Made by a program: the position numbers and the translations under genes. Below, piece after piece: positions 1 through 10,639 of a stretch of DNA of 10,639 nt; positions within the stretch are counted from its first letter, which is position 1, and each line of letters starts with the position of its first letter. Where the stretch lies: positions 1-10,639 of the IMG/VR virus record IMGVR_UViG_2660238215_000016; one strand, given 5' to 3'. Below the pieces are notes generated by a model. The model had not been told where the DNA came from. It did no database searches and saw nothing but the letters and a program-made list of their open reading frames with translations. The DNA comes from a virus (taxonomy: Duplodnaviria; Heunggongvirae; Uroviricota; Caudoviricetes).

Positions 1-291
1 CGGAAGGCCTTCACCATATGCCATGCTGTTTGACTGCCCCGCCAGAACCACAACAAAGTAATACTCCGGGTCTCTGGTGGCGCTGATTACTGTGCCTTCT
101 CCATCCGACGGCTTCACCAACACAGGTGTGGTGACATCACCTTCCGCCGCAATGGCCTGCATCAGAGTATAAGGCGTGATGGCCACCGGGCTGCCAAATG
201 GCTGCCACCCCTCCTTCAGTTTTTGTGTCAGCTTTTCCGCAAGATCTGACGGCGACGCCGCCCTGACCACATCGTAGTGTTTAAATACCAT
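1..291 (-). CDS. Partial CDS (N-terminal part; runs off left edge): NanS-p-like phage sialate O-acetylesterase (DUF1737-like N-terminus leading into SASA/SGNH domain)
   Basis: Minus-strand translation from ATG at 291 reads MVFKHYDVVRAASPSDLAEKLTQKLKEGWQPFGSPVAIT...VVVLAGQSNSMAYGEGLP; the GQSN block is the characteristic first motif of SASA/SGNH esterases. SD-like GGAAAAGG lies 3-5 nt upstream of ATG 291; an in-frame ATG at 306 (MVEKVMVF...) is an alternative start. Not in the ORF track because it is truncated by the window edge. Family assignment from memory of prophage NanS-p proteins. Confidence 0.5.
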   Translation of the reverse strand, partial: MVFKHYDVVRAASPSDLAEKLTQKLKEGWQPFGSPVAITPYTLMQAIAAEGDVTTPVLVKPSDGEGTVISATRDPEYYFVVVLAGQSNSMAYGEGLP

Positions 292-1382
292 GACCTTTTC
301 CACCATATAAAGGAACAATAAATTCTTTTCTGATAGAGATTTAAATAAAAATACATTATTTTACAAAAAAATAATATCCATTACAAAAACATCCGATTTT
401 TTTATATTCCCGCTCATCCTGCTAATTTGTATTACAAAAAAATGAAACAACTTGAACCAAAGTGATACAAAATTAGAAAAGAAAACCCCAGGAAGACAAA
501 GAAGACGATCTTTTTCAATGAGTTACACTGATTTATTGACTATGATTTTTAGCAAAACAATCGAAAGCAATGTGTACCGAGAAGGTTAAAAGATGGAATG
601 GATAGTTATTGACACAGTGATATGCCCATCAAGCGGAATAACGTTTTCAACTGTATGGTGTAAAATAAAGTTGATAATCTGGTATCAGTCAGATGTGTTC
701 CTGCCACCCGGAAGTATTCTCACACCTGTTAACTCAGGTGTGATTATGGATAATAAGCTGCTTCCATTAACCATTTACAACGTGACACCATTTAACAGAA
801 AATTCTGGTTCCTTATCAGAAATCAAAAAGAGTGCCCCGGGAATTCAGTTAAAACAAAAATAAAATGCCATAATAGTATGTGTGTACTGATGATATGCCC
901 GTATGGATTATATAAGTAACAACATATGAATACATAACAGATAAACTATTGACCTTGAGGCTCATCCATATAAAGAAGAGCTCTCCGAAGAGGTGTGTAT
1001 TTGCATGCACATTCCTTTTTTGCTCTATGTCATGACCTCCGGCGACTCTATCCCGGCACCAGCAAACCCGCATCATTCTCGTTTCCGGTGTCTCTAAAAC
1101 CACAGCACACCTGCCCCCCCGCTGAGGGAGGGAAGCACTGTATCCGTACACTCAGCAACAGAAATACCACCTGCTCACTGCGCTACATATCAGCAACAAT
1201 TTTATACCCGAACATTATCATTCAACAGCATGGTTCACAACAACATCATAACCCAGGAAACGAGAATCAGATCAAAAAAACAGAAATTTTACATGAAAAA
1301 TACTTTTTATTAATATTGATAGCGTCGTACCACAAAATACGATGAATTATCCCTGAACTTAACATTAATGCCAGTATGTATT

Positions 1383-1402
1383 GCCCGCTGGTATCAGCGG
1401 GC
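1383..1402. other. Perfect 8-bp GC-rich hairpin (GCCCGCTG-GTAT-CAGCGGGC) about 110 nt downstream of the methyltransferase gene
   Basis: Inverted repeat read directly from sequence. No clean U-tract on either strand, so it is an RNA-structure or processing candidate rather than a canonical intrinsic terminator. Confidence 0.4.
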
Positions 1403-1513
1403 GCTTTAAGAGATCGTATTCATGACTACCTGGGAAAAAGCTATTTTACTATTGTCAGTTTTTATTGCAGCCTTATCTGTCTACTTGCTTCACAGCCTGA
1501 ACTGACCATATCT

Positions 1514-2590
1514 TTATTCATCCTTCCCGTCATCAATTGAGCATGTAAGGATGTGACTAATCTCCTTAACGGTCTGCGCAAAACGTTCTGCCTCCAGTTC
1601 AACACCAGTTGCACGACGCCCGAGCGCCATAGCTGCTTTTATGGTTGAGCCAGAACCCATGAAAAAATCCGCCACCAGGTCACCCGGACGACTGCTCGCG
1701 CAGATTATCTGCCGCAGCATTTCTGCCGGTTTTTCGCACGGATGTTTCCCTGGATAGTACTGCACCGGTTTATGCGTCCACACATCGGTGTACGGCACCT
1801 GCACCGTCACACCGAAATACCGCCGCAAATTTTTATATTCACTCAGCAGTTCCATGTACTGTCGGTTCAGCTCACTGTATGTGCTGACCAGTTGGTAATG
1901 GGACTTTTCCAGTTCTCCCCGCTGATGTTTCTCTTCTGCCACCCGGGCAAACAGCGACTGTAATTTCAGATAATCGCTTTCGTTCGGTAGCTGCCACTGA
2001 CTGGCACTGAACCAGTGCGACACCATGTTTTTCTTTCCTGTGGCATCTGCAATCTGTTTTGCTGTTATCCCAAGAGCAGCACGCGCATCACGAAAGTAAG
2101 AAATCAGCGGGGCCATCACATGCTGTTTCAGTGCCCTGCCCTTCGCCTCATCGCCATCATCTTTCGGACGATACGGCCCCTGATAATGTTCCGCGAACAG
2201 AATGCGTTCTGTGGCCGGAAAATACGCCCGCAGGCTTTCCTTGTTGCACCCGTTCCAGCGTCCGGACGGCTTCGCCCAGATAATATGGTTCAGCACATTG
2301 AAGCGTTCACGCATCATGATTTCAATGTCAGATGCCAGGCGATGGTCACAGAACAGGTAAAGACTTCCGGCAGGTTTCAGCACCCGCCAGAACTGCGCCA
2401 GACACTGGTCCAGCCACTTCAGGTAATCATCGTCGCCCTTCCACTGGTTATCCCAGCCCTCGGGCTTCACTTTAAAGTATGGCGGGTCTGTGACTATCAG
2501 ATCGACAGAGTTTTCCGGTAAGGTCTGGATAAATTCCAGGCAATCAGCGTTGATTAACTCACAACTGGATATTTTTACAGTATTAAGCAT
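1514..2590 (-). CDS. Phage-encoded DNA methyltransferase (N6-adenine/N4-cytosine amino-methyltransferase, beta-class motif order)
   Basis: 358-aa ORF with ATG start. Motif IV DLIVTDPPY near the N-terminus and SAM-binding motif I FFMGSGST near the C-terminus (order IV then I). Position downstream of Q in the late transcript matches lambdoid prophage orphan methylases. Confidence 0.85.
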   Translation of the reverse strand: MLNTVKISSCELINADCLEFIQTLPENSVDLIVTDPPYFKVKPEGWDNQWKGDDDYLKWLDQCLAQFWRVLKPAGSLYLFCDHRLASDIEIMMRERFNVLNHIIWAKPSGRWNGCNKESLRAYFPATERILFAEHYQGPYRPKDDGDEAKGRALKQHVMAPLISYFRDARAALGITAKQIADATGKKNMVSHWFSASQWQLPNESDYLKLQSLFARVAEEKHQRGELEKSHYQLVSTYSELNRQYMELLSEYKNLRRYFGVTVQVPYTDVWTHKPVQYYPGKHPCEKPAEMLRQIICASSRPGDLVADFFMGSGSTIKAAMALGRRATGVELEAERFAQTVKEISHILTCSIDDGKDE

Positions 2591-2740
2591 GGATCATTAA
2601 GCCTGTCTCTGATAGGCTCATTCTGCTTTTGCGCAAAGCAGTGGGCCTGAGGTTTGCTTGTGAACCCAACGCATGAGCAGATGGCTGGTAGGTGCCCCTA
2701 ACACCCACCAGCCGCCCATTTACCACAAATAAAAAAGCCT

Positions 2741-2938
2741 TCACTGCGGAAGGCGTCTGTAACAACCGAACTGATAGTCTGCCAGACCCGCCATAACAAG
2801 CTGGGTCAGTATTAACTGGCAGCGTTCGCGTGAAAGGTAAGTATTCTGCGCAATCTCCCCGACTGTCGCCGGGTCGGTAACGCTTAATTCATTAAACACC
2901 ACTCTGGCGGTTTCTGTCATATCCTGCTGTTTTAGCAT
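2741..2938 (-). CDS. Small hypothetical phage protein (65 aa), possibly helix-turn-helix-like
   Basis: Intact ORF with ATG start and upstream AGGGAAAA SD-like sequence, same orientation as flanking phage genes, between the tR'-like terminator and the methyltransferase. No family recognised. Confidence 0.4.
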   Translation of the reverse strand: MLKQQDMTETARVVFNELSVTDPATVGEIAQNTYLSRERCQLILTQLVMAGLADYQFGCYRRLPQ

Positions 2939-3060
2939 GTCTTTTTTCCCTTTTGGTTAACGTGACATACCAATAACTCTTGTCCAAAAAGCCAGTAAGC
3001 AGAAAGACCGGTATTCGCAACCACCAGCGCATTTAACGCCCCGTGCCGTTTTTCAGTCAT

Positions 3061-3082
3061 AAAAAAACCCGCAAAAAGCGGG
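3061..3082 (-). terminator. Rho-independent terminator immediately downstream of the Q gene (tR'-like late-operon terminator)
   Basis: On the minus strand: stem CCCGC, loop TTTTT, stem GCGGG, followed by seven T (plus-strand A-run 3061-3067). It sits about 80 nt downstream of the Q stop codon, matching the lambda pR'-qut-tR' arrangement. Confidence 0.75.
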
Positions 3083-3161
3083 CTCTTTCAAATGTCCATG
3101 TCTGCTATTCGCCTCGCGGTACAGCTTTGCGAAGCTTACCGGAATTGAAGCAGTTTTTACG

Positions 3162-3728
3162 TCAAAAAGCAATAACTTTTTTCTCTATACCAAAAGCCAT
3201 AACCATTGGTTTGTACAAAATAAATTCTGCCACCTTTAGCCAATGCTCAATGCGTCTTTCACAGGTTCTTAAACTCCATTCCGGATGTGCATCATTCAGC
3301 AGTTCAGCCATTTTGCGCTTAGTCATCCCCCGCCCCACATAACGCTGACTCAGAACATTGAGCAGCCCGGGATAACCTGCCAGTACTTCACCAATAACCC
3401 TGTCGATTATTAACGCCTCTGAATCGGTACAATGTGCCAGCCAGCTTTTTTGATTGCCGTTGATCATATCCCGCAAAAAAGCCTCAAGTTCAGGTTTGTC
3501 CAGACCCGCTTTTTTCATCCTCCGGAGCGCCTCGTTAATTGCCGTTTTTGTCAGCTTTTTAGAGGTCAGTAATTGGTTGAACATATTTCCCGTCTTACCG
3601 TCGCCAATATACGACCAACGCCCCCACATACGCAGTTTCCCCTGGATCCAGACACTTTCCAGCGTTTTCAGGCGTAAATGCTCACCGCTTTTGCCTGTAA
3701 TTTCCGGGTATATCATATTTATGCTCAC
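3162..3728 (-). CDS. Q-like late-gene antitermination protein
   Basis: 188-aa ORF directly downstream of rusA (GTGA start/stop overlap at 3725-3728; in-frame ATG at 3716 is an alternative start) and directly upstream of a strong terminator. N-terminal region LRMWGRWS...FNQLLTSKKLTK resembles the WGAW...GLITSKVKSR region of 933W/82-type Q proteins (recalled, not searched). Synteny rusA-Q-terminator is typical. Confidence 0.6.
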   Translation of the reverse strand: MSINMIYPEITGKSGEHLRLKTLESVWIQGKLRMWGRWSYIGDGKTGNMFNQLLTSKKLTKTAINEALRRMKKAGLDKPELEAFLRDMINGNQKSWLAHCTDSEALIIDRVIGEVLAGYPGLLNVLSQRYVGRGMTKRKMAELLNDAHPEWSLRTCERRIEHWLKVAEFILYKPMVMAFGIEKKVIAF

Positions 3729-5492: not shown

Positions 5493-5744
5493 TTATTCTT
5501 CTGCAAAAGCTGAAAAGCCTGCTTTTATTCCGATCTCTTTCAGTGCCTGTAATGAAGTGACAAACTCACCTTCGCGCAAGATAAATCCGTCTGTCACTCG
5601 ACCATCCACAAAATTAATTAACGCAGCCCCATTCTTTCGCAAACACATAATGCGGTAATGACTAACAAGATTTCCATTTTCAACGCACACAGCATAGAGG
5701 CCATCTTCACAAAAAATTTTACGCAGTTCTTCGATGTTCATCAT
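5493..5744 (-). CDS. Small prophage protein, Rem-like (83 aa)
   Basis: ATG start with GGAAGGA SD. Length and position (between hokD and the ydfU-like gene) match the Qin prophage rem gene; assigned by synteny and length from memory, not by sequence comparison. Confidence 0.55.
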   Translation of the reverse strand: MMNIEELRKIFCEDGLYAVCVENGNLVSHYRIMCLRKNGAALINFVDGRVTDGFILREGEFVTSLQALKEIGIKAGFSAFAEE

Positions 5745-5860
5745 CAGAATCCTTCCGGATAATTAGCTCTCCCCTTTAAGGGACCATCCCTCTTATCCCT
5801 GCGCGCTACTTAAGTATTTTTGATTCTATTCCGGCGCCGTCCAGAACTTCAAACGCGTTG

Positions 5861-5891
5861 AAAATAAAAACAAAAACCCGCCGAAGCGGGT
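5861..5891 (-). terminator. Rho-independent terminator at the 3' end of the hok mRNA (fbi/terminator region)
   Basis: Minus strand: hairpin ACCCGC-TTCG-GCGGGT followed by TTTTGTTTTTATTTT, about 70 nt downstream of the hok stop codon. Confidence 0.65.
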
Positions 5892-5960
5892 TAAGTGCGG
5901 GTGCGTTGAGGATGCCTGCCACATCAGAGGTGGCGAGGGATTTCTCCCTCGCCGGGTCTC

Positions 5961-6116
5961 TTACTCCTCAGGTTCGTAAGCTGTGAAGACAGCGACCTCC
6001 GTCTGGCCGGTTCGGATTCGTACCTCGCAGAGGTCTTTCCTCGTTACCAGTGCCGTCACTATGACGGTTAAACAGATGACGATCAGGGCGATTAACATCG
6101 CCTTTTGCTGCTTCAT
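5961..6116 (-). CDS. hokD: Hok-family type I toxin (HokD/RelF-type small membrane toxin)
   Basis: 51-aa translation MKQQKAMLIALIVICLTVIVTALVTRKDLCEVRIRTGQTEVAVFTAYEPEE matches HokD as I recall it; AAGGAG SD about 9 nt upstream of ATG at 6116. Confidence 0.9.
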   Translation of the reverse strand: MKQQKAMLIALIVICLTVIVTALVTRKDLCEVRIRTGQTEVAVFTAYEPEE

Positions 6117-6173
6117 AGCCTGCTTCTCCTTGCCTTTCGGCACGTAAGAGGCTAACCTACATGTGTCTAGCAT
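5961..6173 (-). CDS. mok-like overlapping reading frame (modulator of killing) through which hok translation is coupled
   Basis: 70-aa ORF starting at ATG 6173 and co-terminal with hok (MLDTCRLASYVPKGKEKQA-MKQQK...), the same architecture as mok/hok in plasmid R1 hok/sok. Confidence 0.5.
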   Translation of the reverse strand: MLDTCRLASYVPKGKEKQAMKQQKAMLIALIVICLTVIVTALVTRKDLCEVRIRTGQTEVAVFTAYEPEE

Positions 6174-6200
6174 GAAATTGGCCTCAGATTAATGTTAAGC
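6135..6200 (+). ncRNA. Predicted Sok-like antisense RNA region (coordinates approximate)
   Basis: Placed by analogy with R1 hok/sok, where Sok is antisense to the hok leader around the mok SD and start. Here the mok ATG is at 6171-6173 and the tac-like 5' element of the hok mRNA (GCTTGAGGCTATCTGTCTCA on the minus strand) lies near 6265-6285. Promoter and ends not confidently read. Confidence 0.3.
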
Positions 6201-6291
6201 GTCTTGCAGGACGCGTAATGTTAACTGGGGCTTTTCTCTATCTGCCTTTGGTGTTCATGCCTGAGACAGATAGCCTCAAGCACCCGCAGCC

Positions 6292-6320
6292 ATTCTACTT
6301 AACTCCCGTTACCCCGCCAA
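6292..6320 (-). promoter_or_regulatory. Putative sigma70 promoter of the hok/mok mRNA
   Basis: Minus strand: -35 TTGGCG (6315-6320), 17-nt spacer, -10 TAGAAT (6292-6297), immediately upstream of the tac-like GCTTGAGGCT leader element. Confidence 0.4.
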
Positions 6321-6429
6321 TATGAAATCAGTCAGAAAGGCGATCCATAAGAATAATGAATTCTGTAAGGCAATAGTCTCACTGTCTAACATATCTTACC
6401 TGATTACTTTACAATATAATAATTCATAG

Positions 6430-7065
6430 TTAAATCAAATGAATGTCATCATCCAATAATTCATTAGTAGTAATACTACCTTTTTTGAAAAAATTTTCAT
6501 TTGCCTCAGCAATTTTTGCATCATTAACAAATTCATCACACATCCCAAAATAATGAAAAAATCTATTTAGTTTACATATTCCAATGGTATAGTGCCCTTT
6601 AGGTGTTTTGTCCACATAAACACGATTTGCTTTTATAATATGCATCTCATAATCATCTATATGTGGATGAACGATGCGAAATGATGCAGATGCAGTTGGA
6701 TAGTTTTTGCGCCGCCCCCCATTTATTACGGGTTCAAATAACACTTCATTTTTACCTTTGAATTCATTGCAGTCAGGACATACTACACATAGATTCTTAG
6801 GTTCAAAAATAAAACATAGATATTGAGATTTTGGCACAATATGCTCTATAGGAGCAGCTTGTGCAGCTCTTACCCCAATAGGCTCATGACAATATACACA
6901 TTCTAGCTTTTGTTCTTCTCTGTAATGATTTCTAATTTCTGCACGGAGAACTTGCAAATCATCATCTCCCCAGTTGGTATGCTTAAAATCTGGAGAAGAC
7001 AATTTTTTCTCAATAATATCTAATGACTCTGCGCTGAATCTAATTGGATTTTTAATTTTTGGCAT
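6430..7065 (-). CDS. HNH endonuclease, PtuB-like (downstream gene of a Septu-like ATPase+HNH pair)
   Basis: His-Me finger read from translation: CVYCHE ... EHIVPKS ... CVVCPDCNEFKGKN (CxxC...H...N...CxxC). ATG at 7065 with AGGTG upstream; the ORF track start (7074) is an in-frame GTG. Overlaps the upstream ATPase gene by 14 nt (23 nt with the GTG start). Strongly AT-rich by eye. Confidence 0.8.
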   Translation of the reverse strand: MPKIKNPIRFSAESLDIIEKKLSSPDFKHTNWGDDDLQVLRAEIRNHYREEQKLECVYCHEPIGVRAAQAAPIEHIVPKSQYLCFIFEPKNLCVVCPDCNEFKGKNEVLFEPVINGGRRKNYPTASASFRIVHPHIDDYEMHIIKANRVYVDKTPKGHYTIGICKLNRFFHYFGMCDEFVNDAKIAEANENFFKKGSITTNELLDDDIHLI

Positions 7066-8425
7066 AAATTTCACACACCTGAGATACGGAATTTACGAGT
7101 TCATTAATAGGGTCATTACTATTAACGTTTTCAAGGAGAAGCTGGAGTTGTTTTAATTCACGCCAATTATCATCTGTTACTAACTTAGCAGTCTTAACTT
7201 TTGAAAGTAAATTGAAAGCTAATCTGGCAATGTATTCATTCATAATGCCAGGGGCATCAAATAGTTCCGCAAGTTGATAGTCTGCAGACCGGTTGCTAAA
7301 GTATTTTGCTTTATAAAGATAACTTTTCGACAAAGATGTTATATAACAACCTTTATTCGGCAAATTGGATATTATTTGTGGTGAATGAGTTGCAATTATG
7401 AATTGACAACCTGAGTAAGTTAAAAATGCTTTTGTTAACATAATGATAAACTCTTCCTGCCATCGAGGATGCAAGCTTATTTCCGGTTCATCAATTAGTA
7501 TTATAGAACCATCAGTTATATGCCCTGCAATTCCAAGCAACATCACTAATAAACATTGTTCTCCCGAGCTCGCACGTTTAAGTGACATGGGACCATAGCT
7601 TTTTTTTATGAGTCGCATATCCATCAATCTCATGAAGCCAGCGTTCATAAGTTTAAGAATTGATCTAGAAAAATAATTATTCGCATAAGTCGAGCCAACC
7701 AATGTTTCACCATTGGTAAAATCGACTGACAAGGTTACAGCCCTACGTTCAGGTTCAAATCGATTAATTTCAACCAGTGCTTCGTAAATATCATGACGTG
7801 ATTCGGAGTTTAACTTTAAGAGACTCTCAATATTCTTCCTGTCAATTTTTATATTGTATTTTAAATATAACTCCTTAACTTCCGTTAATATCTCATCTGA
7901 ATATACACCAATGAAGTTATAGTCAGGAGTGTCCGGTCCGTTGTAAGTTGGTTTAAATACAAACTCTATATGGGGCTCAAAATCAATAGAATGAAAAACA
8001 TCGAGTAAATTTGCAGGATTTTCTGAATAAGCAAGTTTCTCTAGCCAACCTCTCGCTGCTGAAGATAAAAGGGATACGGCATTTGATACGCCGAAGGGGC
8101 CTTCTCCACGCATACCCACATAGCGATAATTATTTTCTTTCCTTTGGTGATTTAATGACCTACGCCCTGGAGGGAATTTATCGAATGGGCTGGTAGATAC
8201 GGCAATTAACTTTGGTGTTATTTCTCTGTCAAATAATGGATTAAAAGTTTTCAAGAAATGAACATCTTGAATACAGTCTTTAGCAATCTGAGATAACAAT
8301 CTGCTTTTTCCAACGCCATTTTTACCTACAATTACTGTAAAAATATTCGCATTATCAGAAACATCACCTTCTATAGCAAGTTTTAAGGTTCGACTATCAT
8401 GATGGGTATAATATAGTCTTTTCAT
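7052..8425 (-). CDS. ABC-type (AAA_15/AAA_21-like) ATPase, PtuA-like (upstream gene of a Septu-like pair)
   Basis: 457-aa ORF with Walker A GKNGVGKS near the N-terminus, ABC-signature-like SSGEQ, Walker B IILIDEPE and H-loop IIATHSP near the C-terminus. This spacing is typical of OLD/PtuA/AriA-type ABC ATPases. AT-rich; overlaps the downstream HNH gene. Confidence 0.85.
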   Translation of the reverse strand: MKRLYYTHHDSRTLKLAIEGDVSDNANIFTVIVGKNGVGKSRLLSQIAKDCIQDVHFLKTFNPLFDREITPKLIAVSTSPFDKFPPGRRSLNHQRKENNYRYVGMRGEGPFGVSNAVSLLSSAARGWLEKLAYSENPANLLDVFHSIDFEPHIEFVFKPTYNGPDTPDYNFIGVYSDEILTEVKELYLKYNIKIDRKNIESLLKLNSESRHDIYEALVEINRFEPERRAVTLSVDFTNGETLVGSTYANNYFSRSILKLMNAGFMRLMDMRLIKKSYGPMSLKRASSGEQCLLVMLLGIAGHITDGSIILIDEPEISLHPRWQEEFIIMLTKAFLTYSGCQFIIATHSPQIISNLPNKGCYITSLSKSYLYKAKYFSNRSADYQLAELFDAPGIMNEYIARLAFNLLSKVKTAKLVTDDNWRELKQLQLLLENVNSNDPINELVNSVSQVCEIYAKN

Positions 8426-8481
8426 TTTATTTTTCTCTCATTAAAATGCTCTTAATTAAGAATACCTATGCCTTTAACAGG

Positions 8482-8510
8482 CTCATAGTTATGATTTGTG
8501 ATGCTTTCAA
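8482..8510 (-). promoter_or_regulatory. Putative sigma70 promoter for the ATPase-HNH operon
   Basis: Minus strand: -35 TTGAAA (8505-8510), 17-nt spacer, -10 TATGAG (8482-8487), about 55 nt upstream of the ATPase ATG, in an AT-rich leader. Confidence 0.3.
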
Positions 8511-8809
8511 AAGGGTATGTAACTAAGTATTGAACTCTACACCTAAGATTCTAAGATTTTTAAATTAAAGTAGTTAAACATGCTTTTGATTGTACTCATT
8601 CTATGTCCATCGTTGCTGCATGTCTAGATATCGTGCCCCGCTATTGTTATGTAATGATATGATGGACGCCCTGTCTGAAGCAGCCAGTGAAATATTTTTA
8701 CTGTCTGCGTTTTCTACAGGAGTAAATCACATGAGCACAATCAGAGTTGTTGGTATTGATATTGACCTGTGCCCAATTTTTTGAGACATATATTGGTACG
8801 CTCTTGGCA

Positions 8810-8831
8810 CAGGGCTGCTGCTGCAGCCCTG
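8810..8831. other. Strong 9-bp hairpin (CAGGGCTGC-TGCT-GCAGCCCTG) immediately downstream of the recombinase fragment
   Basis: Perfect inverted repeat read from sequence; no adjacent U-tract. May be a terminator-like structure or a recombination/attachment-site remnant. Confidence 0.4.
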
Positions 8832-8837
8832 ACAGCT

Positions 8838-9083
8838 TTAGACTTCGATCGATTCAGAGATCTCTAATGCATCATCAACTTCTATACCCAGATAACGAAC
8901 TGTGCTTTCCGTTTTCTTATGGCCCAACGGAAGTTGGATCACCCGGAGATTCTTAGTTTTCTTGCAGACAAGGCAAGGTTTTGTTCTTCTCATGGAATGT
9001 GTGCTGTAAAGCGAATCTTCGAGACCAAGCTTTTCTCCCCCCTATGAAAGATTCGGTTATATTGCAGGATTGATATGTGTTGG
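8838..9083 (-). pseudogene. C-terminal fragment of a tyrosine recombinase/integrase (truncated remnant)
   Basis: Minus-strand frame translates to ...FHRGGEKLGLEDSLYSTHSMRRTKPCLVCKKTKNLRVIQLPLGHKKTESTVRYLGIEVDDALEISESIEV*, carrying the C-terminal catalytic signature H-x-x-R ... LGH ... T-x-R-Y. Only about 80 codons are open (stop at 9084-9086), and a full-length integrase cannot fit before the 280-aa gene, so it is a truncated relic. Different frames in the neighbouring 8953..9135 and 9206..9406 ORFs are consistent with decay. Confidence 0.45.
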
Positions 9084-9463
9084 TTAGTACCGACCCGAGA
9101 TCGGAACAAGTAGTCTTTACTGCGTAAATTGCCAAGCTTTATCAATGCAGAAACAGCTTCTCTTGTCCCTTTGGTTATCTCAAATTGGATAGGACTGCCA
9201 GTTTTTCAGTTGCAGCACCGTAGCTCTGCTTGAAACCGAGCTAAATCACGCGTTTTACCTTCCAGTTCAAGCCGGATTTGGAGCCCCCAGATATGAGATA
9301 TCTGAAGTGGTCTTTTTGGGCCTATGATACTGTCTTTGTTCCTCGGTGACGTATTCATACTCAAATCTCCTGCAATGTGGAAGATTTGAGTATGGTTGTC
9401 TCTCAAGAGCGAAATAGGTCAACTATAACTAGTTGTTGTGCATGTACGAATTCTGCCAATTAA

Positions 9464-10306
9464 TTATTGACAATAAAAAATTCTGGAATGTTCGAAATCA
9501 TCATATCGAATTATAATCTGGTTGACTGCATCTATTGTTGGCGCCATTTCAGTTATAATATCTCGATAACCTAAAGAGTTAAATACATTTACTAAGGCCT
9601 CACACCGCAGGCCAATAGCAATTACGACATTATAAATTGCCAGCCGTTTATTTTCTTGTTTAACTGCAAGAGTGAGTTCGATAGCAGTAGTTTTATCGCT
9701 TTGGATTGCATTATATAGAGATACTATATTTGCCATATCATCAGAGAATGTATGTATTGAATCACAAAGAGGGACGTAATAGGCATGATAGTGTGTTTCC
9801 CAGCCAATTACTTCGAAAAGCTTTTTGGTTCCAGGATATTCAGGTGTATTTGGCCACAATCTATTAAACATATCAGTTAGCTCTTTTCCGATACGAATCC
9901 TTTCATCTGCTGCTGGATTAGTCATTTCTTTGGATTTTAAACACTCCAGCCACCGTTTCCCATTACTATGAACTAATTTCTTACTACCCTTGAGTAATGC
10001 TTGTGCATTTTTTCCATCATCAATTGCTATATAAAATTGATTGGCAGCCTGTTCCATTATAACTCTAGTTAATACTTCCGATGCTGAAAAGGCTCCGGTA
10101 CTCAAAGAAAATATAGCCTGATTACTAAGTTCATTCAGTACATTAAAGTAATGTAAAACCATCAATTTTTGTTCCACCCCCTTTAGGTTATCTATTTTAT
10201 CTTTATGCCTCTCAAATTTCGCATGGATATATTTATTTATCGCGGCTATTTTTTTTACATCTTCGTCGAAATCAAACGGGCAACGTCCAAACGATTTTTT
10301 CCTCAT
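9464..10306 (-). CDS. Hypothetical protein (280 aa), unrecognised family; accessory/defence-island cargo
   Basis: Long intact ORF with ATG start, near-consensus SD (AGGAGG, 6-nt spacing) and a perfect -10 TATAAT at 10345-10350 upstream. AT-rich like the ATPase/HNH genes. No motifs I can assign with confidence. Confidence 0.75.
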   Translation of the reverse strand: MRKKSFGRCPFDFDEDVKKIAAINKYIHAKFERHKDKIDNLKGVEQKLMVLHYFNVLNELSNQAIFSLSTGAFSASEVLTRVIMEQAANQFYIAIDDGKNAQALLKGSKKLVHSNGKRWLECLKSKEMTNPAADERIRIGKELTDMFNRLWPNTPEYPGTKKLFEVIGWETHYHAYYVPLCDSIHTFSDDMANIVSLYNAIQSDKTTAIELTLAVKQENKRLAIYNVVIAIGLRCEALVNVFNSLGYRDIITEMAPTIDAVNQIIIRYDDFEHSRIFYCQ

Positions 10307-10344
10307 ATATTCCTCCTGTTTTACAATCTCCCATAAGTTGGAAA

Positions 10345-10350
10345 ATTATA
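10345..10350 (-). promoter_or_regulatory. Putative -10 element (TATAAT) of the promoter for the 280-aa gene
   Basis: Perfect TATAAT on the minus strand about 40 nt upstream of the ATG; the candidate -35 (TTATTT, 17-nt spacer) is weak. Confidence 0.35.
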
Positions 10351-10568
10351 CACTGGAGATTACCTATAAATAACTGCGCACGATAGCTAGTCAGTGCAAG
10401 AAGTACAACCAAGTGAACGGTGCGTATCAGATACCTAGCTTAAAGTTCGCGATAGCCGTACTCTGTGTATTAGCTCAGACATTACCTGACAGGTTGAGTA
10501 GATAGAATCGAATCAAAGCTGACAGTCTGGTTTGGACTGTGGGGTCAACCGATGGATGCAACACACAG

Positions 10569-10639
10569 TGAACCGCCCCGGAAATCCTGGAGACTAAACT
10601 CCCTGAGAAAGAGGTAAACAGGATGACTAAAAATACTCG
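10569..10639 (+). mobile_element. Left end (terminal inverted repeat and leader) of an IS3-family insertion sequence, IS629/IS1203-like; continues beyond the window
   Basis: TGAACCGCCCCGGAAATCCTGGAGACTAAACTCCCTGAGAAAGAGGTAAACAGG followed by ATGACTAAAAATACTCG matches, from memory, the IS629/IS1203 left terminus and orfA start (MTKNTRF...). IS3-family ends begin with TG. Confidence 0.7.
10623..10639 (+). CDS. Partial CDS: IS3-family transposase OrfA, N-terminus only (MTKNT...)
   Basis: ATG at 10623 preceded by GAGG SD inside the IS left end; truncated by the window edge. Confidence 0.6.

Follow-up and report, generated by a model that had tools for sequence, protein, structure and literature searches.

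An IS629/IS1203-group element on a probable deletion joint of a lambdoid prophage, beside its Septu cargo island

Where an insertion sequence stands at the very edge of a prophage cargo island, did it help to bring the island in or to cut it short, and what does it say about the host genome? The question is raised by a 10,639-nt stretch of DNA (the window) from the Caudoviricetes record IMGVR_UViG_2660238215_000016, whose last 71 nt abut such an island. A first-pass annotation, made from the letters alone, had called these 71 nt the start of an IS629/IS1203-type element, had credited the element with a part in inserting or truncating the island, and had taken it as a hint of an EHEC/O157 background. 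Using complete E. coli genomes and public assemblies, we find that the element was correctly recognized and that it very probably marks the joint of a deletion in the prophage, one that took only the outermost bases of the island.

We compared 10569-10639 (TGAACCGCCCCGGAAATCCTGGAGACTAAACTCCCTGAGAAAGAGGTAAACAGGATGACTAAAAATACTCG) with 5,426 complete E. coli genomes by megablast. The best-listed matches are identical at 71/71 positions (100% identity, E 2e-28), the stretch is matched in 5,738 records (at 99% identity or better in 1,757), and the matched features carry the PGAP label 'IS3-like element IS1203 family transposase'. The segment reads TGAACCGCCCCGGAAATCCTGGAGAC...AGAGGTAAACAGGATGACTAAAAATACTCG. 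It begins at exactly 10569, since the IS-free alleles of E2348/69, FORC 064 and CFSAN004176 are identical to the window through 10568 and then continue with CGATCTACAG..., where the window has TGAACCGC... The features at this edge of the window are as follows.

10566-10568, no strand: left flank CAG; the right flank in relatives is TCC, so there is no duplication
10569-10639, plus strand: left end of an IS629/IS1203-group (IS3 family) element, limited by the end of the window; placed by identity and by the divergence of IS-free alleles at 10569
10569-10593, plus strand: left inverted repeat (IRL), 25 bp, TGAACCGCCCCGGAAATCCTGGAGA, opening with the IS3-family TG and matching the reverse complement of the right end at 22/25 positions
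10611-10614, plus strand: GAGG ribosome-binding site, read from the sequence
10623-10639, plus strand: start of orfA, first 17 nt from the ATG at 10623 (MTKNT...), read from the sequence and running away from the island

The right inverted repeat (IRR) of the full copies at three related loci (L001, L003 and L008) matches the IRL of the window at 22 of 25 positions; in strain OkiPb01713 (L001) it is TGAACCGCCCCGGGTTTCCTGGAGA, at 14455-14479. The element has the approximately 25-bp terminal inverted repeats of the IS3 family, running from 5'-TG to CA-3', and its 71 nt are all shared with copies that PGAP assigns to the IS1203 family. These results confirm that 10569-10639 is the IRL end of an IS629/IS1203-group element whose transposase genes lie rightward, away from the island. 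The assignment is to the group, because full copies in this lineage, up to 73 of 1310 nt apart overall, differ by at most 2 nt within the first 71; this stretch is insufficient to separate IS629, IS1203 and IS3411, the comparison being with copies labelled by PGAP.

The window ends at IS position 71, inside the element, and completeness can be read only from relatives. In OkiPb01713 the element is complete (L001 13170-14479; 1,310 bp) and encodes a 108-aa OrfA with an HTH_Tnp_1 domain and a 295-aa OrfB with an rve DDE domain, with an ALIL frameshift pseudoknot scoring 120.9 bits; translation of the full copy at L008 likewise gives a 108-aa OrfA with HTH_Tnp_1. We considered whether the window's strain might hold only a truncated or solo IS end, given that the window stops within the element and that non-intact IS629 copies have been reported in related EHEC (PMC5567499). 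Against this, all relatives with this left junction have a complete 1,310-bp copy, and a stop tens of bases into a multicopy IS would resemble the end of a short-read contig. We therefore regard a solo end as very unlikely. By comparison with these relatives, what follows base 10639 in the window's own strain would be the rest of the element, which is most likely complete.

The relatives also supply the second junction. At both L001 and L003 the sequence runs ...ACACACAG, then 1310 bp of IS, then TCCTGTTTTT, with the 3' half of int (the prophage integrase gene) making up the right flank and tRNA-Ser and mtfA coming after it. The first-pass annotation had proposed looking for the right end together with a 3-4 bp target-site duplication. 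The right end is there, but the 3-bp (rarely 4-bp) duplication is not, the flanks being CAG and TCC at both loci. For a copy that sits on a deletion joint a missing duplication is expected and is no argument against the identity of the element. Three other copies in the same prophage are simple insertions with 3-bp duplications, at sites that are empty in the window. OkiPb01713 has an IS629 insertion with the duplication CTT (window 5960-5962), and genomes of the GCA_003015285.1 type have insertions with the duplications TAA (6354-6356) and GAC (8831-8833). An independent IS1203 insertion in the O111:H8 strain 02-3334 (L029 7741-9050), flanked by the duplication GCG and in the same orientation, lies in the same integrase pseudogene by tRNA-Ser and mtfA, 10 bp upstream of the right junction. 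A look-up of the junction GATGCAACACACAGTGAACCGCCCCGG in metagenome contigs gave 0 hits.

The genomic background follows from whole-window comparisons. Over 10,636 nt the window and OkiPb01713 are 100% identical, save for one extra IS between rem and hokD in that genome, and identity to 2013C-4974 is 99.9%. No complete genome is identical to the window, in which the rem/hokD IS of OkiPb01713 is absent and IS position 69 is different. Both OkiPb01713 (assembled from Nanopore reads) and 2013C-4974 (from PacBio reads) belong to the eae-positive stx1a STEC of serotype O5:H9, the latter with the sequence type ST342. The hint drawn earlier from the element thus holds as far as an EHEC-like background is concerned and fails for O157. 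The O145:H25 strain CFSAN004176 has the prophage and its integration site in common with O5:H9; we had considered a shared sequence type for the two, which is wrong, as CFSAN004176 is ST7061. A literature search on ST342 together with IS629 found nothing relevant. Within a lambdoid prophage at tRNA-Ser (serU position)/mtfA, the window covers the right-operon and late-regulatory part. In addition to DUF1133 (Q-like), RusA, DUF968, rem and hokD/sok genes, it carries the following.

593-919, plus strand: iraM (anti-adapter for RssB)
1514-2590, minus strand: N6/N4 DNA methyltransferase (PADLOC MTase_II, 1.5e-160)
5961-6285, minus strand: hokD/mokD toxin gene with sok antisense RNA (sok: Rfam RF01794, 118 bits, 6111-6285), left of the island

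No restriction endonuclease is annotated beside the DNA methyltransferase in the nearest genome, OkiPb01713. To the right of hokD/sok lies the cargo island, whose left edge is at about 6305.

6305-10568, minus strand: low-GC cargo island (GC 33-37%); homology to island-free prophages stops at about 6304
6430-7074, minus strand: PtuB (HNH, 214 aa; PADLOC 1e-83)
7052-8425, minus strand: PtuA (AAA_15/AAA_21 ATPase, 457 aa; PADLOC 1e-165)
8838-9358: tyrosine-recombinase pseudogene, annotation taken from OkiPb01713 (L001)
9464-10306, minus strand: DUF5677 gene (Pfam PF18928), the island's last intact gene, with transcription directed away from the IS
10307-10568, minus strand: surviving upstream region of the DUF5677 gene, 262 bp from gene to IS; the final 60 bp of the module are gone

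PtuA and PtuB form a Septu type I anti-phage pair, and the slot they occupy extends from hokD/sok to the replication genes of the lambdoid prophage. The exact PtuA protein occurs in 1,267 blocks of the assembly collection and the exact DUF5677 protein in 394; a look-up of PtuA contexts added further island contexts and 0 new junction alleles. The DUF5677 gene and the recombinase/integrase remnant together form a portable module (window 8838-10568; L030 7000-8245 in IHE3034). It has no PADLOC match, and may be defence-type cargo. In a few genomes, NCTC9112 among them, the recombinase pseudogene contains a further IS3-family element (L021, L026 and L027). A promoter and terminator scan of 10200-10639 found no promoter-like site on the minus strand upstream of DUF5677, and one on the plus strand, which does not exceed the yield from shuffled sequence.

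Does this island owe its presence to the element? Of the 56 complete genomes with the right end of the island, 54 have no IS there, and the island ends are unchanged in them. Furthermore, a P2-like prophage of IHE3034 carries the DUF5677 module at 90% identity and without an IS; there it fills the cargo slot flanked by the genes for tail-fibre assembly and tail sheath. An island mobilized or delivered by the IS, for example as part of a composite transposon, would be suggested by nothing more than proximity: in some relatives IS629 copies flank parts of the island, as at the L008 locus, where they occur at window positions 6354 and 8831 in addition to the junction copy. Those other copies are simple insertions with duplications of their own, their sites are empty in the window, and the island ends are the same, with no IS present, in the 54 complete genomes and in the P2-like prophage as well; we consider delivery by the IS exceedingly improbable. 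Because the island occurs IS-free with the same ends in both settings, the IS is not its carrier: it played no part in bringing the island in. It also cut no island gene. The role in insertion proposed by the first-pass annotation is refuted, and it is the phage, not the IS, that carries the Septu/DUF5677 island as cargo.

What the element does mark is an absence. The IS is bordered on the left by a point 262 bp upstream of the DUF5677 start codon and on the right by the middle of int. Homology between the lambdoid locus of CFSAN004176 (L006) and the P2-like locus (L030) ends at L006 15229 and the junction corresponds to L006 15169, which places the joint 60 bp inside the right edge of the cargo module; in lambdoid IS-free alleles the module is followed by DUF977 and DUF1627 remnants. 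In CFSAN004176, which is IS-free at the same site and 99.9% identical to the window over 5634-10571, 5,300 bp separate the two flanks, and the distance rises to 8,232 bp in FORC 064, whose version of the prophage is fuller and occupies another attachment site. Read from the annotation of the IS-free allele, the missing block holds ydaT and the genes for replication protein P, a DnaT-like initiator, cro- and cI-like regulators and DUF1391, together with remnants of a DUF1627 gene and an exonuclease gene, the small DUF4224 gene that occupies the excisionase position, and the initial 539 nt of int. Without a deletion, the IS would be followed by CAGCGATCTACAG with the region from P to int intact, and a simple insertion would show CAG CGATCTACAG... 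after the right end of the IS, as a 3-bp duplication. The comparison with IS-free alleles suggested by the first-pass annotation has shown identity through 10568 and then a gap. Its truncation reading is upheld: in relatives with the whole element the prophage, mainly in its early region, lacks 5.3 kb to the right of the IS with no duplication left behind, and the island has lost its last 60 bp and no gene.

Based on these data, we propose with considerable confidence that the IS sits on a deletion joint produced by an IS-associated deletion. On this view one of the two points would have received an IS629 copy, and everything from there to the second point would subsequently have disappeared, which amounts to 5.3 kb by comparison with the same-site allele and 8.2 kb by comparison with the fuller one. 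Either a deletion next to the element or recombination between it and another copy would account for the loss. Among 5,426 complete genomes, none has a single IS629 at exactly either junction with the intervening DNA intact; because no such parental insertion was found, we infer the order of events, and the same applies to the end at which the element first inserted and to the route of deletion. The consequence would be a remnant prophage without repressor, replication, excision or integrase functions, incapable of induction, in which the Septu/DUF5677 island and the late region are fixed in the chromosome.

One of the two routes within this explanation, the alternative to a one-ended adjacent deletion, is homologous recombination between two directly oriented IS629 copies, one near the island edge and one in int, leaving a single hybrid copy and no duplication. 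The int pseudogene is a proven IS1203 target in the same orientation only 10 bp away (in O111:H8), O5:H9 chromosomes carry at least 40 pieces matching the IS end, and the junction copy of OkiPb01713 looks mosaic, with blocks 183-254 and 948-1297 distinguished from one copy and 69-890 from another. On the other hand, neither parental single insertion occurs at the exact sites in the 5,426 complete genomes, and mosaicism could equally have arisen by later gene conversion, given that the junction copy itself varies by 24-54 nt between strains. We regard two-copy recombination as a possible but somewhat doubtful route.

Copies of IS629 are abundant in this lineage. The O5:H9 chromosomes have at least 40 pieces matching the IS end, compared with a median of 3 per genome among genomes with any. 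Copies within the lineage are up to 73/1310 nt apart (up to 5.6%), with the differences arranged in blocks (L001, L003 and L008). The 24-54 nt that separate copies at this junction in different strains suggest frequent gene conversion among the 40 or more copies.

Further alleles show that the junction is still changing in relatives, and they bear on whether the element made the deletion or arrived afterwards. An exact look-up of the DUF5677 protein in public assemblies returned 10 loci (L008-L017). In the three long contigs L008-L010 the full 1,310-bp IS is kept in the window orientation and the left flank is 2 nt (AG) shorter, so that ...ACACAC is followed directly by TGAACC. In the seven draft O5:H9-like contigs L011-L017 the IS is gone, and four different joints are found in its place, shorter than the IS-bearing allele by 1311, 1313, 1315 or 1318 bp. 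Each type of scar has exactly 2 bp of microhomology (CA, TG, GT and CA, respectively) in which the IS termini are involved. A bystander IS, inserted into a 5.3-kb deletion that had formed earlier by another route, would be consistent with the existence of joints without an IS in these draft genomes. However, such an insertion would leave a 3-bp duplication, and there is none; moreover, the IS-free joints take four different forms, 1311-1318 bp short and with 2-bp microhomology at the IS termini. Since there are four sequences, each with microhomology at the IS termini, the IS-bearing allele is the ancestor of these joints and not their descendant. We thus attach very little weight to a late arrival, and retain the IS-associated deletion as the preferred explanation.

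The scars in the relatives resemble a described process. IEE-promoted loss of copy-out-paste-in elements gives deletions of near-IS length between 2-4 bp microhomologies (PMC9943667; bioRxiv 10.1101/2023.06.07.543989), and all four scar types have end points in microhomology and a loss close to the length of the IS. On this comparison of sequences, the scars are of the pattern described for IEE-promoted loss. Turning to the gene itself, a chimeric query composed of the island and a 601-bp iee fragment matched two places in both OkiPb01713 and 2013C-4974, and an island-only control matched one. Both complete O5:H9 genomes thus contain DNA homologous to iee, a putative iee gene. It is not at the ycdU-serX or clpA-serW-infA island sites of OkiPb01713, both of which are empty. 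The iee of O145:H25 has been reported to be disrupted by IS600.

The most puzzling allele is that of 2013C-4974 (L003 13170-14479). Here the two flanking bases are exactly those of OkiPb01713 and the window, but the complete IS629 between them has the opposite orientation, with its IRR beside the island and again no duplication. It matches a yeeJ copy 4.4 kb away at every position and differs from that of OkiPb01713 by 54 nt. Several sources for an inverted copy were discarded. Homologous recombination between IS copies leaves the linkage of flank to IRL invariant. Replicative intramolecular transposition of the deletion/inversion type, with or without recombination between inverted copies, either keeps that linkage or regenerates a direct duplication (worked by hand), and re-insertion into any of the excision scars fails as CAG and TCC cannot be a duplication. 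The options that remain are misassembly, a switch within the 13-bp perfect terminal repeats, or flush excision and rejoining. A real in-place inversion in 2013C-4974 seems to us improbable. If it were real, it would mean that IS629 can leave as a double-stranded fragment, cut flush at its two ends, and be joined back in either orientation; the allele of L008-L010, where the IS is kept but the flank is 2 nt shorter, would then represent such rejoining without a change of orientation, and the locus would provide evidence from a natural population for a double-strand-break/end-joining model of IEE action over a replication-slippage model.

An IS629 on a prophage deletion joint is a known element in a known kind of event. 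As in the IS629/IS1203 of EHEC, the 71-nt left end is the same, and relatives of the window's copy are 1,310 bp long with TG...CA ends and 22/25 matching repeats, with orfA and orfB joined by a -1 frameshift at an ALIL pseudoknot, an rve DDE domain and, ordinarily, 3-bp duplications. Unlike those elements, the copy studied here has no duplication and lies on a deletion joint, its host is O5:H9 and not O157, and the lineage copies are up to 5.6% divergent and mosaic-looking. IS629-associated small structural polymorphisms and prophage decay in O157 were reported by Ooka et al. 2009, as cited in PMC9943667 and PMC5567499. As far as those citations describe the O157 events, the present case resembles them in having IS629 at an inactivating deletion edge within a prophage, polymorphic between close isolates, and differs in prophage, site and serotype, and in the deletion of a whole immunity/replication/excision module beside a Septu defence island. 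IEE-promoted excision of IS629 was likewise described by Kusumoto et al. 2011 (as cited in PMC9943667 and PMC5567499) and by Calvo et al. 2023 (PMC9943667). The relatives are similar in losing 1311-1318 bp between 2-bp microhomologies and in having iee-homologous DNA, the latter judged by homology, whereas the inverted copy and the 2-nt flank loss fall outside the outcomes in PMC9943667 and bioRxiv 10.1101/2023.06.07.543989. Both IS629 deletion joints in EHEC prophages and IS629 excision scars are therefore already described, and wider interest attaches only to the flush in-place inversion, which, if confirmed, bears on the mode of IS629 excision. For annotation, the element explains why the sequence stops here and marks the prophage as a probable grounded remnant. 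For typing, the junction is a marker of the STEC O5:H9 lineage, with subtypes given by the IS present, the IS inverted and the four scars.

As a final observation, yeeJ also carries IS629 copies (L003 18868-20177; L008, in window orientation, 10954-12263), which lie at differing positions in different O5:H9 strains and are both without duplications. The copy in yeeJ of 2013C-4974 adjoins a loss of several kb of that gene. Both yeeJ copies, which lie within a few kb of the junction described here, have the look of additional IS-associated deletions.
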